Origin: an uncultured Solirubrobacterales bacterium
GTDB taxonomy: Bacteria; Actinomycetota; Thermoleophilia; Solirubrobacterales; Solirubrobacteraceae
Assembly (NCBI GenBank): GCA_963842005.1
Contig: CAWJEV010000002.1
Span: 981,484-1,045,483, forward strand
Length of the DNA: 64,000 nucleotides
Direction of reading: 5' to 3'
A program made the translations under genes and the position numbers. Of the stretch, positions 6,850-12,833 are shown piece after piece; within the stretch, counting starts at the first letter, position 1, and each line of letters starts with the position of its first letter. The notes under the pieces were generated by a model. That model had not been told where the DNA came from, ran no database searches, and worked only from the letters and a program-made list of their open reading frames with translations.

Positions 6850-7008
6850 CTCCCCTTGGGCTCCTCCGCGGGTTTGCTGCGCAGGATCCCGCTCGTGTTT
6901 CCGATCCTCTCGGGCCGCTACTGCCGGGTGGCCGGAGGCATCGCAGCCTCCGGCTCCCACAGATCCGCACGTGAGCCTCTCGACTCATACGGCTCGTGTC
7001 GTCCAGCT

Positions 7009-9021
7009 TTATAGGGTTGGCGCACAGTGCCTCCAATGCACGAATAGCTCGGGTTCCCTTGTATGGACCCCTCGCAACCACGTCCGCGCTCGAGGACCAC
7101 TGCGCTCCAGTCGTTTGTACTTCCACCTCGCCCATCGCACCAGATGGCGGTCCATGCGACGGCAGAGTGGGGCGACCGCGCTCGGGTAGAACGCGGTGTA
7201 ATACGCAAGCCAACCCCCAATGACGGGGTTGACCTCCTTTGCGAGGCCATTGAGAGTCCAGGTCGTGTGCCTGTGAAGCCGCCATGACGCTGCCCGGCGG
7301 CTCATTTCGCTCAGCTTCCCCGGAGATACAGCCGGAAGGAAGCTTGTAAAGGCAACCCCCCGTCTCTTGTTCACTGCTTTCCGGGGCCTGAACGCATAAC
7401 CGCAGAACGTGAACGAGACGTGCTCGTATGTTCCCCGGCGATTGCTGTCCTTGCAATGTGAAGTAGGCGAGAGGCGCGCCACCGATATCCCACCCAGCGA
7501 TCTCAACGGCTGGGCATCCTCGGCACGACTCCTCTCACCCCTTCCCAAACCGTGCATGAGGTTTTCCCTCACACGGCTTTCCCCCAGGCAGTCGACCGAC
7601 GGCATTCCGCTTGCCACAGCGTTGGCTATCGGCCCAAGCGACCTACGAGGCTCCTCGGCTCTTACGAGCCTTGGCCGTTGCTTGATCGCGCACCTGGCTA
7701 GAGGCCCTTCGCTACGACGGGTTATGTTGTCCACGCCGATCATCGCTACTACTGCCTCCTCCGACTTCCGCTCAGCGCTCCACCACTTCCCGGTACTTCC
7801 GGTTATAGGTATCGCCACTTCCCGGAGCGCCCCAGACTGGCAACCTGGGGCCGTGAATGCCGGGGCCGAGACGGATCTCTCACGTTCCGTGCTGAACTGT
7901 GCATACGTTCCGATCCCAATACGCCGGCGGGTTCCTCGGTGCTGCAACTCCAAGGTCTTCGCACCTTCCCTGGCCTTCGCCCATCGTATAGAGGCTCGGC
8001 TCCCGCTCCTTCCCGCTCTCGCGGGGACCATATCGACGCTTACGCAGGATTCCTCATCGTACGGACCGCATGCTTGCTCGCCGCCCAAAACGGCGACTTT
8101 GTCATGGGGCTTCGACAGTCGGGTCTCCCCTTCCACCGCCCACCAACTACGCGGCTGCTTGGTCATTACCGCGACCGGCCTCTCACCGGCAAGCTCAACA
8201 TAGCTTCGTGATACACATACGATCTTGGTCTTCTCGGGATGAAGCTCCAACCCGACTTCGACCAGCCGGCGTGCGAGCGCCTCCCGCAACTCACGGGCAT
8301 GGCTCTCGCTGACACAATGGATCACCACATCGTCCGCAAAGCGCTCGAACTGTACGGCCGGGAACTCCCGCACCATCCAAGCATCGAACCCGTAATGCAG
8401 AAATAGATTGGCGATCAGCGGCGAAATCGGAGACCCCTGCGGAGTCCCCTTCTCCCTCGGCACGAGACTGCCGTCAGGCATTAACATCGGGGCTTTCAAC
8501 CAGCGCTCCACATACAACAGGACCCACTTCTGGTCCGTGTGGCGCGCCAAGGCCTTCAACGTCAAATCCCAAGGAACAGAGTCAAAGAATTTCCGGATGT
8601 CAACATCGAGCACCCAGTCCTTCCTAAAACCCCGCTCCCGGCAAACCGCGACCGCTTCGAGGGGCGAGCGTCCGGGACGATAGCCGTAGGAGTCATCGTG
8701 GAACACTTGCTCCACGCTGGGCTCCAACGCCATAGCCGCCGCCGTCTGAGCGACCCTGTCAACGATATTTGGTATGCCTAGCCGTCTCGAACCTTTCTTC
8801 TTCGGGATATCCACCGCCCGGACCGGCCCGGGGAAATACGACCCCGACGACATGCGATTCCACAGCTTGAAGAGGGTCCCCGAGAGATCCTCCTCGAACT
8901 GCTCGATCGTCACACCGTCGGCCCCAGCCGACCCGCCTTTCTCTCTCACCTTCAACCACGCATCCCACACCAGTTGCTTGGGGATGACATATGACTTTCC
9001 CTTCAGCTTTGGCTCAAGCAT
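7009..9021 (-). CDS. ltrA: Group II intron reverse transcriptase/maturase, interrupted in frame by an inner intron
   Basis: RT motifs LGIPNIVDRVAQ, GTPQGSPISPLIAN, FADD and LHPEKTKIV, plus X/thumb domain (YCKD..SFTFCGYAF..GWLAYY); no endonuclease domain seen. Removing 7458..8216 restores KTKIV-Y-CKD and a ~417-aa protein. Confidence 0.92.
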   Translation of the reverse strand: MLEPKLKGKSYVIPKQLVWDAWLKVREKGGSAGADGVTIEQFEEDLSGTLFKLWNRMSSGSYFPGPVRAVDIPKKKGSRRLGIPNIVDRVAQTAAAMALEPSVEQVFHDDSYGYRPGRSPLEAVAVCRERGFRKDWVLDVDIRKFFDSVPWDLTLKALARHTDQKWVLLYVERWLKAPMLMPDGSLVPREKGTPQGSPISPLIANLFLHYGFDAWMVREFPAVQFERFADDVVIHCVSESHARELREALARRLVEVGLELHPEKTKIVCVSRSYVELAGERPVAVMTKQPRSWWAVEGETRLSKPHDKVAVLGGEQACGPYDEESCVSVDMVPARAGRSGSRASIRWAKAREGAKTLELQHRGTRRRIGIGTYAQFSTERERSVSAPAFTAPGCQSGALREVAIPITGSTGKWWSAERKSEEAVVAMIGVDNITRRSEGPLARCAIKQRPRLVRAEEPRRSLGPIANAVASGMPSVDCLGESRVRENLMHGLGRGERSRAEDAQPLRSLGGISVARLSPTSHCKDSNRRGTYEHVSFTFCGYAFRPRKAVNKRRGVAFTSFLPAVSPGKLSEMSRRAASWRLHRHTTWTLNGLAKEVNPVIGGWLAYYTAFYPSAVAPLCRRMDRHLVRWARWKYKRLERSGPRARTWLRGVHTREPELFVHWRHCAPTL
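7458..8216 (-). ncRNA. ORF-less group II intron (inner intron of a twintron, 759 nt)
   Basis: Starts GTGTATCACG and ends CCTACTTCAC (bulged A at -7, AC end). Domain V AAGCCGTGTGAGGGAAAACCTCATGCACGGTTT at ~7547-7580. EBS1 ATACGAT (7983-7989) is the exact complement of the last 7 exon nt ATCGTAT (8217-8223). Candidate EBS2 TGGTC (8026-8030) pairs with exon GACCA. Confidence 0.9.
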
Positions 9022-9584
9022 GTGCTTCCTGCCTTGCGGTTGAGCACACACTCAAACCAGGACGACCCCGCCCCTTGGCTCCACCCCCGCTGCGATACGC
9101 GGAAGCTTCACAGCTACTACGAGCGAGTCCGCCGACGCTCCCGGCGACGGTACTCTGCTCCTCACGGATTCTGCCGCTTGGAGTCCTTCCTCTCGCCACC
9201 AAACCATCAGTGGCAGTTTCCGGGTACGTCTTCACACGTTCCATAGAAGCGCCTCGGTCGGGTTCATGCTGCCTATATGCCGGATGCCGCCTGGTCAGTA
9301 AACGGGTGACCCCCAGGCTCCTCCCAGGGCAAGAAAACGACCCTGGTTTCGACATCGTCTTAGACACTTTCGACACGTCAACGGCAGAGGACATACTGCG
9401 TCCATCGCTCATCTCCCCGACCCACACCTGCCGCGCTCTAGTCGCGACTTTTCCCACGACGCTCACCACGACGGTCTTCAGCCAACGCAGCTATGGGCGG
9501 TTTAGTACCTCCCCCCGAAGGGCGGTCCTGGAGGGCCGTACAACCTCCATCACTTCTACAGCGCCGCAATCGGCAAGACCACCA

Positions 9585-12500
9585 TCAAACATGCTTCCTC
9601 TTGCCTTTCGCGTTCGTGTTCACAATTTTCTTGTGTGCCTTGTGTGTCCGGTGGTGTGTGTGGGTGGTTTTGTGTGGGCACCCGGTGGTCGTGATGGGTG
9701 TGCTCTGGTGGATGATGCCGCCGTCCTGGGCGAGGAATTCGGTGGGCATCGCGAGCTTGGCGGTGCAGAGGTTCCCGTGGGCTGCCAGGGCGGAGTACGG
9801 GCCCTCGGGGAGCGCGAGCTCGAAGGTGTAGACCGGGACGTCGGGAACCGACTTGAACGTGCTGCTCGTGATCCCGTGCTTGCTGATGAACGTCGAGCCG
9901 ACGAGGTCGACTGTGACGCCGTAGCCCTGCAGGACGACGATCAGGCTGGGAAATGCTTCGCCGCCGTGCGATACGAAGTAGGCTGGGCCTTCCAGGGGGA
10001 CCGGCAGGATCGGCGTGACGGCCTTCGCGTGCCCGACGACCGATGCGGCGGGGCAACGGGCGGGGTTCGCTTCGAACGTCGCGGCGGCGCACGCTTTCTG
10101 CAGCGTCTTCAGGCGGGAGGGCAGCTGGCGGGGGAGTTCGACTTTGACTCTCGCGATGTTCGACTGGCTGGATGCCTGGTTGGCGCCCAGCGGGCCGGTC
10201 GGGTAGACGAGCTTCGCGTCGAGGCTCGCACCGTTCGCCCGGGAGGTCTTCCCCGACGTCGAGACTTTGAAATCGGGTTTGAACTTCAAGCTGCGACACG
10301 AACCGACCTGGAAATGACTGGAGATCTGAGCGCTCGCGCCTTCGGTGCTCGTCGCTGTGCCGCTGAAGGCCATCGTGCTGCATCTCGTCGGGTTGAACAT
10401 GAACCCGGGACGGTCGATCACCGCGTCGATCGACCGCAGATCGGAGGGGACCCCGTCGACGATCGACGGCAACGGGCTCGTCGTGACGGTCAACTGCGAG
10501 GTATAGCGGTCAACTTCGATCCTCGCGCGCGTCACAATCGTGCCAAGGTTGAACGGGCCGACGACCAGCGGCACCACGATCGACAGGCCATACGGGGCAC
10601 CCCCATAGCCCCCGGTGAGATAGATCGGCGCGGGGGGGGACCCGGGCTGCGGCACGACCAGCGGATAGGGCCCGGGGCCTGCCTCCACGACCGTGTGCCC
10701 GATCTGCGAGGCTGCGGGGCACGTCCCGTCGGCTGCCTGCGGTTCGCCGCACAACGGGACCTTGCTGATCATCCCCAACAGGCCCTCCGGGGTCTTGAAC
10801 TGCAACGTCGAGATCCGCTGCTGCCCATCACCCCGCGTCAGCAGAAGCGAGAAGTCCGTGAACCCACCCGCCTGGTCGGTCGTCGACCCCGCGTCCAGCG
10901 AGGGGGCGAACGGCGCCGGGGAGGACGGGCACGCAGACCCCCCCGGGCCTTCGCTGAGCGCGAAGCTGCTCGACGGGAACACTTCGCTCACGAACGGCGT
11001 GCTCCACGGCACAAAATCCGTGCTCGTCGTATACACCCCGCACTGCACCGGGGTCGCGAGCGCTGCCTGCGCGCCACCGCTGAAGGACAGCTTCAGGTCG
11101 CTGAACGGCAGCTGCGGTGTCCCCTTGAACGTCGTCGTGAGCCGCCCCGTCGTTTCGTTCAGGCGGACGTCCCCAACGAACTTCACGTAGATCCCGTCCT
11201 GTGGGTCTTCCGGGGCGACGAGCAGCTTCAGGTCGGGGGGGTTGGACTGCAGCACGTACACGTTGCCTTCCAGCTTGTTCTTCAGCACAGGCGTCTGGAC
11301 CGCGACCTGCCCGACCTTCGAGTCCAACGGGCACGACGGCGGGCCTTCTTCGTCCAACCGAGCTTGCGCTTCCTGGCACGCGCCGAGCCCCGCGGCCTGC
11401 CCCGGGTTGACCACCACGCCTTCCGGGAGGGTCACCGTCGTGTCCTGGATATCGGACTCCGAGTTCGCACCAGAGTTGACGAGGCCTTCCTGGCCCATCT
11501 TCACTTCGAACGTCAAGCCCGCCGGGGTATCCGCACGCACAGTATCCGGCGAGACCGCGACCGCCGGCGCGAATTCCAGCGGGCTGCAACCCGTGAACGG
11601 GCCGATACTCGAAGGCACATTGACCTCCCGGCCCGGTTCTTCCCACGAGTTCACACTGAACACGGCCTGCAACGGTTCCGCGGTGCAATCCGTCGGGCTC
11701 GTCAGATACGGCACCGCGGGATTCGTCACCGGCTGACCCTCCGGGGCTTCTTCCAGCGTAACCGGGTTCGCCTCCCCCCTCGTTTCATTCACATAAAAAC
11801 AATCTCCTGCTTCTTCGCATTTGAGTCCTCGCATCAGATCGTGCTGGGATTCCGCCGGGACACCCCACACGGTAAACGAGGTACCATCGATCGCTATCGA
11901 ACTGTCCTGGATTTTCGTGAAGTTCGTGCGCACCGCATAATCACCAGGCGTCAGCGAGATCGTGCCCTGGATGCCAAACCTTTCGATGACCGTGAAGCCA
12001 AGCTTGGCGATTTCACCAGGGTTAGTCGTCAGATTCAACAACGGCCGCACAAAAGTACCCCGCAAAGCACCAAGATTCCAATAAACAATCACCGACCCGA
12101 CGACCGCGCTCAACGAGCAGTGCAGCGCGCCGTCGCTCTCTTCGCTGAAACCCGCGATCGGGCACTTCGGGGTATCCGCGAGATCACCAACGAACCCCGG
12201 CGGCAAAGTCGCACCGGCTTCCCTCACATTACCCGAGAACAACCCTTCACTCACACTATTGAACTCGAACGTCGTCGTCAGGTCGGGGTGAGCGCCAGCC
12301 TGAGTACTCGACAACGCGCTCACCGTCGAACCAGGAGCAATACCAAACACAGCCGCAGAAGAACTGATCACAGTCGGCGTCTCCCGGCTGGCTTCCACCC
12401 CGCCCCCACCCGACACCGTCACCATATTCGTCACACTCGACCACTCCCGAACACCGCCTTCCACTTCTACAGGAACCTTCATTTCAAGAACATTACCAAC

Positions 12501-12833
12501 CCCAACAACACCCGAAAACACACACGTCAAACCCACACAGCTCATCGGCGCCGCAGTCTCAAAATACAACCCCGAAACAGGTTCAGCGCCAGCCCTCAAA
12601 CCCACCGGCAGCACATCCGACACACTCACCGCTTCACCATCACTCGGACCACCACCAGTATTCTGCACACGCACCGTATAAAAACCCGAACCCCCAGGCG
12701 CCAAATTCGTCGGAGTAGAAAACCCAGTCACCGTCCACTGCGGAACCCCCCCAACACCCAACGCACCCACCGGCACACACAACACCACCAACACACACGA
12801 CACCCCGACCAACGACACACACCGCTTACACAT
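9585..12833 (-). CDS. Large secreted protein B, copy 2 (1082 aa, uncharacterised, four internal repeats)
   Basis: Intact ORF with a Val/Cys/Gly-rich signal peptide, an N-terminal DUF11-like Ig segment (YTVRVQNTGGGPSDGEAVSVSDVLP), four LP.G...C...CP..S.VG repeats and a His/Lys-rich tail. Confidence 0.9.
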   Translation of the reverse strand: MCKRCVSLVGVSCVLVVLCVPVGALGVGGVPQWTVTGFSTPTNLAPGGSGFYTVRVQNTGGGPSDGEAVSVSDVLPVGLRAGAEPVSGLYFETAAPMSCVGLTCVFSGVVGVGNVLEMKVPVEVEGGVREWSSVTNMVTVSGGGGVEASRETPTVISSSAAVFGIAPGSTVSALSSTQAGAHPDLTTTFEFNSVSEGLFSGNVREAGATLPPGFVGDLADTPKCPIAGFSEESDGALHCSLSAVVGSVIVYWNLGALRGTFVRPLLNLTTNPGEIAKLGFTVIERFGIQGTISLTPGDYAVRTNFTKIQDSSIAIDGTSFTVWGVPAESQHDLMRGLKCEEAGDCFYVNETRGEANPVTLEEAPEGQPVTNPAVPYLTSPTDCTAEPLQAVFSVNSWEEPGREVNVPSSIGPFTGCSPLEFAPAVAVSPDTVRADTPAGLTFEVKMGQEGLVNSGANSESDIQDTTVTLPEGVVVNPGQAAGLGACQEAQARLDEEGPPSCPLDSKVGQVAVQTPVLKNKLEGNVYVLQSNPPDLKLLVAPEDPQDGIYVKFVGDVRLNETTGRLTTTFKGTPQLPFSDLKLSFSGGAQAALATPVQCGVYTTSTDFVPWSTPFVSEVFPSSSFALSEGPGGSACPSSPAPFAPSLDAGSTTDQAGGFTDFSLLLTRGDGQQRISTLQFKTPEGLLGMISKVPLCGEPQAADGTCPAASQIGHTVVEAGPGPYPLVVPQPGSPPAPIYLTGGYGGAPYGLSIVVPLVVGPFNLGTIVTRARIEVDRYTSQLTVTTSPLPSIVDGVPSDLRSIDAVIDRPGFMFNPTRCSTMAFSGTATSTEGASAQISSHFQVGSCRSLKFKPDFKVSTSGKTSRANGASLDAKLVYPTGPLGANQASSQSNIARVKVELPRQLPSRLKTLQKACAAATFEANPARCPAASVVGHAKAVTPILPVPLEGPAYFVSHGGEAFPSLIVVLQGYGVTVDLVGSTFISKHGITSSTFKSVPDVPVYTFELALPEGPYSALAAHGNLCTAKLAMPTEFLAQDGGIIHQSTPITTTGCPHKTTHTHHRTHKAHKKIVNTNAKGKRKHV

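Follow-up and report, generated by a model that had tools for sequence, protein, structure and literature searches.

A stop-free reading frame through an ORF-less group II intron nested in the reverse transcriptase gene of a second group II intron

In the genome of an uncultured Solirubrobacterales bacterium (assembly GCA_963842005.1), a group II intron without an intron-encoded protein (IEP) of its own interrupts the reverse transcriptase (RT)/maturase gene of another group II intron, and the RT reading frame passes through the whole inner ribozyme without meeting a stop codon. The stretch analysed, called the window here, covers 64,000 nucleotides (nt) of contig CAWJEV010000002.1 (positions 981,484 to 1,045,483), and this twintron, in which an ORF-less inner intron splits the RT/maturase open reading frame (ORF) of an outer one, lies on its minus strand. 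The inner intron is identified by its class features and its boundaries are secure, it has moved recently, and its open frame recurs in relatives without a conserved peptide. The reading that we favour, at what we regard as roughly even chances, is that selection keeps the unspliced nested intron translatable so that ribosomes could reach the distal part of the RT/maturase.

The twintron and its open frame

The minus-strand ORF 7009..9051 is unbroken and yields 680 amino acids (aa) from a GTG at 9051 or 670 aa from an ATG at 9021. Within the inner intron the sense frames hold 13, 10 and 0 stops, the RT frame being the empty one, and the antisense frames hold 7, 3 and 1. These counts agree with the preliminary description of the window, made from the sequence alone, which had reported a 759-nt, 253-codon intron free of stops in the RT frame and an uninterrupted 680-aa ORF, and which had proposed a shuffle preserving composition. 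Such shuffles make the absence of stops in the RT frame improbable (P = 1.5e-4 for mononucleotide and 5e-5 for dinucleotide shuffles), and a length divisible by 3 (3 x 253) contributes an additional factor of 1/3. The open frame is confirmed as non-random in an intron whose codon-position composition is weakly periodic and not gene-like. The features of the twintron are as follows:

6923..9553, minus strand: outer group II intron of D1D4-2 type (RF01999 at 9426-9548, 94.7 bits; RF00029 at 6923-6997, 48.9 bits)
8217..9021, minus strand: RT ORF exon 1, RT motifs 0-7, ending in KTKIV and the first base of a Tyr codon (Pfam RVT_1, translation)
7458..8216, minus strand: ORF-less inner intron (group II, 759 nt), without stops in the RT frame, its insertion point following codon position 1
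7009..7457, minus strand: RT ORF exon 2, the rest of the Tyr codon, CKD..., the thumb/X maturase domain and the stop (Pfam GIIM)
8217..8223, minus strand: intron-binding site 1 (IBS1), ATCGTAT, the final 7 nt of RT exon 1, from its pairing with exon-binding site 1 (EBS1)
7983..7989, minus strand: EBS1 of the inner intron, AUACGAU, pairing with the last 7 nt of exon 1
8054..8192, minus strand: domain I segment of the inner intron (Rfam group-II-D1D4-4, 95.1 bits, E = 7.8e-20)
8164..8166, minus strand: AUG in a domain I hairpin loop, in the open frame (GUA-AUG-ACC-AAGCAG), lineage-specific
7458..7581, minus strand: domains V and VI of the inner intron, with an insertion in the domain VI stem (RF00029, 54.3 bits)
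9014..9469, minus strand: open frame upstream of the RT, crossing the 5′ half of the outer ribozyme, its TGA overlapping the RT start (ATGCTTGA)
7409..8203, plus strand: antisense open frame of 264 aa, judged a chance by-product (no Pfam match; antisense statistics of the family)

Excision of exactly 759 nt (8216..7458) joins ...HPEKTKIV to YCKDSNRRGTYEHVSFTFCGY, the motif of uninterrupted relatives (KTKIV/YCKD), and gives a 417-aa RT that is collinear with GsI-IIC RT and with those relatives. The insertion point falls in the length-variable RT-7 hairpin loop, between KTKIV and FTFCGY and ahead of the thumb/X domain (GsI-IIC RT, 6AR1). Translation and this placement bear out the two products put forward earlier, 417 aa spliced and 670 aa unspliced with an insert before the thumb; the longer isoform is in frame on paper and stands as a predicted product, with RVT_1 at residues 72-274 and GIIM at residues 572-648.

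Class assignment rests on RF00029 (54.3 bits, gathering score 40), which covers the catalytic hairpin of domain V and a domain VI with its bulged branch-point A close to the 3′ end, on RF02003, the D1D4-4 model, which is covered whole (95.1 bits, gathering score 49), and on a full-length alignment with 58 relatives (nhmmer). The 5′ terminus is GUGUA (consensus GUGYG) and the 3′ terminus AC, the intron ending in ...CCUACUUCAC. Domain IV is reduced to a stub of ~110 nt, and the translation of the 759 nt has no Pfam match. EBS1 (intron positions 228-234) and IBS1 form a 7-base-pair pairing that covaries among relatives (AGACGAU/ATCGTCT, ACACGAU/ATCGTGT, CGAACGC/GCGTTCG, ACUUCAC/GTGAAGT), with compensatory EBS1 changes in at least four sub-lineages (L141, L116, the group at the HYAF site and G116), each matching its own target. 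The boundaries are secure because EBS1 thus changes in step with its target. Moreover, soil-metagenome DNA contains alleles that lack exactly the inner-intron segment; intron-less RT alleles (joint 7457/8219; runs X1, X3 and X15) occur in DNA metagenomes and in one RNA run, and a soil metatranscriptome contig (679 nt, 96% identical, run X9) lies entirely inside the inner intron (window 7521-8199).

Three 100% identical copies of the inner intron are present at different sites in this genome of ~69% guanine-cytosine (GC) content. The second occupies the same site in a second outer intron with an 88.6% identical outer part (G000 C2:19116-22950; junction DKTRIV/YCKDSNRHG). At position 519 of this copy an IS630-family element (DDE transposase, TA target, inverted ends; C2:21032-22172) is inserted and inactivates it. 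The third copy is ectopic (G000 C5:816697-817455), between GAGACCGTCGTCGTGT and CCCCAAGG, where the IBS1 is compatible if G·U pairs are allowed; it lies opposite the 3′ end of a 225-aa ORF, on the other strand, and outside any sense ORF. Judged from its sequence, the C5 copy is evidence of recent retrotransposition, apparently without an IEP of the same type in the genome, in which no ORF-containing intron of D1D4-4 type was found. With moderate confidence, we take the inner element for an active, mobile ORF-less group II intron of a lineage that homes into other group II introns.

The outer intron has its 3′ end fixed by domains V and VI and its 5′ end approximately placed: sequence resembling the second copy and a 166-nt fragment (C2:2431509-2431674) reaches upstream past the presumed 5′ end (~9553). 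Its start lies ~30 nt downstream of the stop (9585-9587) of a gene for a 1082-aa secreted protein (9585..12833).

Relatives, insertion sites and neutral descent

A protein-database search with the insert translation brought up called ORFs in metagenomes that cross related introns; this sample was biased towards open frames and served solely for the family model and for RNA motifs. Homologues were instead collected from genome and metagenome contigs by a 21-nt RNA motif (GGAACRKGRGAGATCCGTCTC), blind to ORFs, and nhmmer then delimited 58 introns of the ORF-less family at full length (709-854 nt), of which 52 are distinct, hosted by Actinomycetota, Chloroflexota, Dormiibacterota, Desulfobacterota, Acidobacteriota, Bacillota and one archaeal bin. 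Among the 52 distinct homologues the best frame has no stop in 12, at most one in 18 and at most two in 27, against 4-16 in the other two frames. The tree resolves three clades. Clade A holds window-like introns nested in D1D4-2-type RT genes at three sites, clade B is nested in D1D4-4-type introns, and clade C (716-724 nt) is for the most part not in RT genes and often lies within transposase genes or opposite them on the other strand. Mean stops in the best frame are 2.9, 1.4 and 4.1 in A, B and C, respectively, with 8-10 in the remaining frames of all three clades; decay of the open frame is seen in clade C and, within clade A, in several members (L121, L088, L068). The 5′ terminus is GUGUAYCACG in clade A and GUGUCC or GUGCG in the others.

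The antisense strand of the same family carries fewer stops in total (mean 11.4 versus 20.4 in sense). Its best frame averages 2.0 stops, about what chance gives for ~3.8 per frame (an expectation estimated, not computed), whereas the best sense frame lies far under its expected count family-wide. The antisense frame at 7409..8203, which had been cited earlier as a reason for leaving chance open, is indeed there, but by these counts it is nothing out of the ordinary.

At the YCKD site, that of the window intron, a stop-free frame and a length divisible by 3 are combined in that intron and L033 (95% identical, 759 nt), L141 (92%, 759 nt) and L105 (85%, 792 nt). The extra 33 nt of L105 are the net result of several compensated frame shifts, and its continuity is seen into exon 2 only, the 5′ flank being the 3′ end of another intron; L141 encodes a complete 688-aa RT including the insert. 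Homologues at this site that commonly carry stops or leave the frame, the outcome named in the preliminary description as contrary to its idea, are therefore not what the sample holds, with three YCKD lineages open and in frame.

Elsewhere the open frame is used differently. At N-terminal sites (G116, L096) and at sites upstream of the RT (L163, L146, L079) it begins inside the intron, and composite ORFs extend to the natural stop of the RT in G116 (659 aa), L096 (708 aa), L163 (749 aa) and L146 (796 aa), the frame of L079 being in phase into the RT up to the contig end. Altogether 8 of 13 open or nearly open flanked introns exit in phase into a downstream RT ORF, 4.3 being expected; six of the eight reach the RT stop and two meet the contig end first. 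The open frames of L160, L082, L101 and L103 leave the intron out of phase and meet a stop within 34-257 nt. Two simple rules were accordingly discarded, one requiring every open frame to continue in the phase of the RT behind it, which holds in just those 8 of 13, the other requiring every length to be divisible by 3, which fails family-wide.

At each of the nine distinct RT-gene sites (window, L033, L035, L037, L038, L097, L128, L135, G116) the intron interrupts a codon between its first and second bases, and exon 2 mostly begins with A; non-RT sites (ISL3, IS6) are in phase 0. This regularity could reflect selection for reading in and out of the intron or, equally, a preference for non-wobble -1/+1 target bases. 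An alternative delimitation of G116 as a 758-nt intron in phase 2 was rejected, since EBS1-IBS1 pairing and the N-terminus of its host (KVKS/FVIS) give 755 nt and phase 1.

Could the open frames simply have been inherited? Neutral evolution was simulated on the tree, starting from a root with an open frame; rates were site-specific and indels were omitted, which makes the simulations conservative. At least 11 open tips arose in 0/300 simulations at full branch lengths under a simple substitution model (P = 0.003 at half lengths) and likewise in 0/300 with column-profile bases (P = 0.03 at half lengths); 11-12 open tips stand against 0.3-3 expected under neutrality. Observed divergence suggests that the realistic branch scale lies between half and full lengths. 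The phase in which the shared RNA is read also differs among open members, over 184-444 nt relative to the window intron where indels differ. L163 departs from the phase of the window intron over 444 of 708 nt, domain V is among the stretches affected, and L141 and L144 remain in phase with the window intron throughout. The differing phases imply that many frame-shifting indels occurred without closing the frame and that no peptide is conserved. Among the 759-nt members, synonymous differences make up ~29% in the open frame against 18-21% in the others, far from a gene-like value. On these sequence comparisons, clades A and B appear to preserve openness as such and clade C to be losing it, for which the evidence is good but not conclusive.

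The loci found by the RNA motif (L060-L168) are widespread in soil and peat metagenomes. Their carrier bins are labelled Anaerolineales, Desulfobulbales, Acidimicrobiales, Pseudonocardiaceae, Dormiibacterota and Geobacteraceae, and further ones Mycobacterium, Gaiella, Gemmatimonas, Bacillota and one Methanoregulaceae archaeon. The lineage is nearly always found beside other group II introns or transposase genes of insertion sequences (ISL3, IS6, IS3 and IS5-like).

Loop start codons and upstream frames

An ATG or GTG stands at the domain I loop motif in 35 of the 40 members of clades A and B, and in 28 it is in the best frame. The start-codon motif is absent from 18 of the 19 clade C members, which have no open frame, and from ORF-containing controls. 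Open frames, a lineage-specific start codon in frame with them and nesting near RT genes thus occur together. The loop AUG of the window intron has no clear Shine-Dalgarno sequence upstream; gene callers begin two predicted proteins (P0010 and P0016) at MTKQP.

Open frames are found upstream of RT genes as well. The 5′ half of the outer intron in the window has a 456-nt open frame, with 9 and 10 stops in the other two, and three other D1D4-2-type outer introns (L005, which is the outer intron of G116, L035 and L141) show the same layout. In all four the upstream frames (300-540 nt) overlap the RT start codon with their stop, ending in ATGA, GTGA or ATGNNTGA in those three, an arrangement that looks like translational coupling into the IEP. 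In four ORF-containing D1D4-4 introns of the same bacterial family (L053, L055, L058, L059), an exon-terminal ATG opens a stop-free stretch of ~480-500 nt through domains I-III that ends in GGTAAGCGN-TAG-GGC-ATG; the stretch shares the RT frame and finishes 3 nt short of the RT start. GAG or GGG replaces that TAG in the twintron-bearing relatives L163, L146, L160, L079 and L082. The frame that is open in the ORF-less lineage is already stop-poor in domains I-III of ORF-containing D1D4-4 controls, with for example 11, 9 and 1 or 8, 10 and 1 stops in the three frames.

A class-wide rule that the upstream frame is open into the RT fits the L053-like introns and the four D1D4-2 outer introns, but openness is variable (66-513 nt) in a phylum-wide sample of seven matches, and we keep the rule as a lead only. 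These frames and the loop start codons suggest that translation across the ribozyme towards the IEP may be a more general habit. It is conceivable, though we are inclined to doubt it, that in these high-GC lineages group II ribozymes are built to be translated through and that their frames deliver ribosomes to RT/IEP genes, in nested ORF-less introns by a frame with its start codon in a domain I loop and in two ORF-containing classes by a frame across domains I-III that finishes exactly at the IEP start codon. IEP synthesis would then be driven by ribosomes that had just unwound the ribozyme, an unrecognised link, if true, between translation, intron folding and maturase supply.

Readings of the open frame and known systems

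In the mechanism that we favour, the inner-intron lineage would home mostly into, or just upstream of, RT genes of other introns, and selection more than descent would keep one frame through the whole ribozyme free of stops. A ribosome on the unspliced outer RT mRNA would then escape termination, traverse domains I-VI and continue into the thumb/maturase part, yielding an RT of 670 aa whose RT-7 hairpin loop would carry 253 aa of low-complexity sequence and which might retain some activity. The presumable benefit is that translation of the distal RT/maturase part, and ribosome cover of the RNA, would become independent of prior splicing, which would ease the chicken-and-egg problem of a twintron whose inner intron needs a maturase and sits inside a maturase gene. 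A ribozyme lineage selected to stay translatable would, if real, be a new answer to that problem and a rare instance of selection on the absence of stops and not on protein sequence, and the interplay of translation, folding and splicing in bacteria would become testable with simple stop-codon mutants. The earlier suggestion that the open frame is selected holds to the extent that the frame is recurrent and probably selected; it is, however, a property of the ORF-less lineage as a whole, independent of the frame of the host, and not every member reads through into exon 2.

A number of points weigh against this reading. At the YCKD site itself read-through is lost in the L116/L154 lineage (757 nt, 3 stops), and L135 of the distant clade C is not open either. 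At the HYAF/DAW site the exon-1 frame runs 410-713 nt and then stops, and exon 2 is never reached. Lengths of open members are random modulo 3, hence there is no length rule. L144, although fully open, interrupts a transposase gene out of phase with it, and no sense ORF surrounds the C5 copy. In the column-profile simulation at half branch lengths the mean number of stops is as expected (2.77 versus 2.80 observed) and only the excess of open tips is significant. Two classes of ORF-containing introns likewise have a frame depleted of stops in their 5′ halves, which in some cases (L181) does not share the phase of the RT, and part of the signal in the window must therefore be inherited or have another cause. 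Three further, uninterrupted RT genes in the genome, one sharing 56% identity with the host RT and two sharing 35-44% with RTs of D1D4-4 type, could supply maturase in trans, leaving no strict need for read-through. Metatranscriptome contigs of relatives are uninformative on splicing or read-through, because the joined form also exists as DNA. On general grounds, ribosomes crossing a ribozyme should hinder its folding, and bacterial introns in translated genes are thought to shield their catalytic cores from ribosomes. The group I intron in the td gene of phage T4 lies inside a translated ORF that ribosomes enter before splicing, and an early in-frame stop keeps them out of the catalytic core; the present lineage has the opposite design.

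Several of these points would be accounted for if there were no selection for translation at all, a possibility that we regard as real but the less probable. The open frame would then be ancestral or inherited from the parent intron, with RNA conservation and a composition poor in T and A slowing the appearance of new stops, and the divisible length and right phase in the window would be a one-in-three coincidence copied by recent retrohoming. The conservative simulation does reproduce the mean stop number, decay is visible in clade C and in L121, L088 and L068, the frame is already stop-poor in the ORF-containing D1D4-4 controls, lengths follow no multiple of 3, and the three identical genome copies count as one event. 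What such descent accommodates poorly is the number of fully open tips (11-12 where 0.3-3 are expected) and the way in which openness outlasts many frame-shifting indels and phase changes; two to three YCKD lineages, L105 by compensated shifts, also keep both frame and divisibility by 3, and open frame, in-frame start codon and nesting near RT genes coincide. Moreover, inheritance only shifts the question to why the frame of the parent is open.

In a further reading the intron would have a translated frame of its own, starting at the loop AUG/GUG (8166..8164 in the window) and leaving through the 3′ splice site, and would serve as a ribosome-loading leader into the host RT ORF by fusion or by termination-reinitiation, with in-frame passage from exon 1 a secondary matter. 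We consider this unlikely. The start motif speaks for it by its distribution, occurring in clades A and B, where 28 of the 35 carriers have it in the best frame, and missing from clade C and the ORF-containing controls, as do the composite ORFs of 659-796 aa that reach the RT stop, the MTKQP starts chosen by gene callers, the replacement of the TAG before the RT ATG by GAG or GGG in twintron outer introns, and upstream frames that end exactly at the IEP start in two ORF-containing classes (TAG GGC ATG in one; ATGA, GTGA or ATGNNTGA in the other). Yet the loop AUG lacks a clear Shine-Dalgarno sequence, four open introns (L160, L082, L101, L103) exit out of phase, upstream openness ranges over 66-513 nt in the phylum-wide sample, and the stops beside RT starts may simply follow from conserved M-x-E-P-K codons. 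Least probable by far is that the insert is a genuine protein domain or that the antisense ORF is a real gene constraining the sequence. The slight preponderance of synonymous differences in the open frame and the existence of the 264-aa ORF would fit such a role, but the peptide is rich in Arg, Gly, Ser and Glu and the conserved part of the element is its RNA core. We rejected a conserved protein in the insert, which has no Pfam match and whose RNA is read in different phases among open relatives, and equally an antisense constraint, the antisense stop counts fitting chance and the frame matching no Pfam family.

Parts of the arrangement have parallels in other systems. In the yeast mitochondrial introns aI1 and aI2 a frame in phase with the upstream exon runs through ribozyme domains I-III and is translated. 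There, however, the frame belongs to the intron's own IEP ORF and ends in domain IV, whereas the window holds an IEP-less intron that is open through all six domains into a 3′ exon that is the IEP gene of another intron.

Twintron layouts as such are of a known kind. In Thermosynechococcus elongatus, the IEP ORF of TeI4 (F1) introns is interrupted by ORF-less TeI3 (F3) introns (Mohr, Ghanem and Lambowitz 2010, PMC2882425), and three likenesses to the window are evident: the RT ORF of one group II intron has been the homing target of a second that lacks an ORF; the inner copies are identical although the outer introns around them have diverged, a sign of recent independent insertions; and the IEP can perhaps be expressed without inner splicing (PMC2882425). 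The T. elongatus inner intron, however, is placed between the first two ATGs, so that the IEP can start at the second, and an open frame through the intron is not mentioned in that paper (PMC2882425). We count the second ATG, another way to an IEP with the inner intron left in place, as a precedent for the favoured reading. In the window the inner intron sits deep in the ORF, in the RT-7 loop, a D1D4-4 element within a D1D4-2 one, stop-free and in frame. No report of stop-free nested introns was found in the literature open to searching, with subscription papers, e.g. Dai and Zimmerly 2003, outside its scope; it is the stop-free, in-frame inner ribozyme that is new.

Nested group II introns are also described in Methanosarcina acetivorans (Dai and Zimmerly 2003, as summarised in PMC4424553), and as far as that summary goes the likeness extends to nests, tandem and partial copies, which the present family has too (L062, L105, L118). 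Among its higher-order nests and tandems (L062, L118, L105, L036, L165), members lie inside introns of the family type, at model position ~464 or just after the domain I segment, and L105 directly abuts the 3′ end of another copy. For annotation, a practical consequence is that gene callers yield chimeric 'RT' proteins of 650-800 aa at such loci (P0001, P0010, P0016), which are either read-through artefacts or isoforms.

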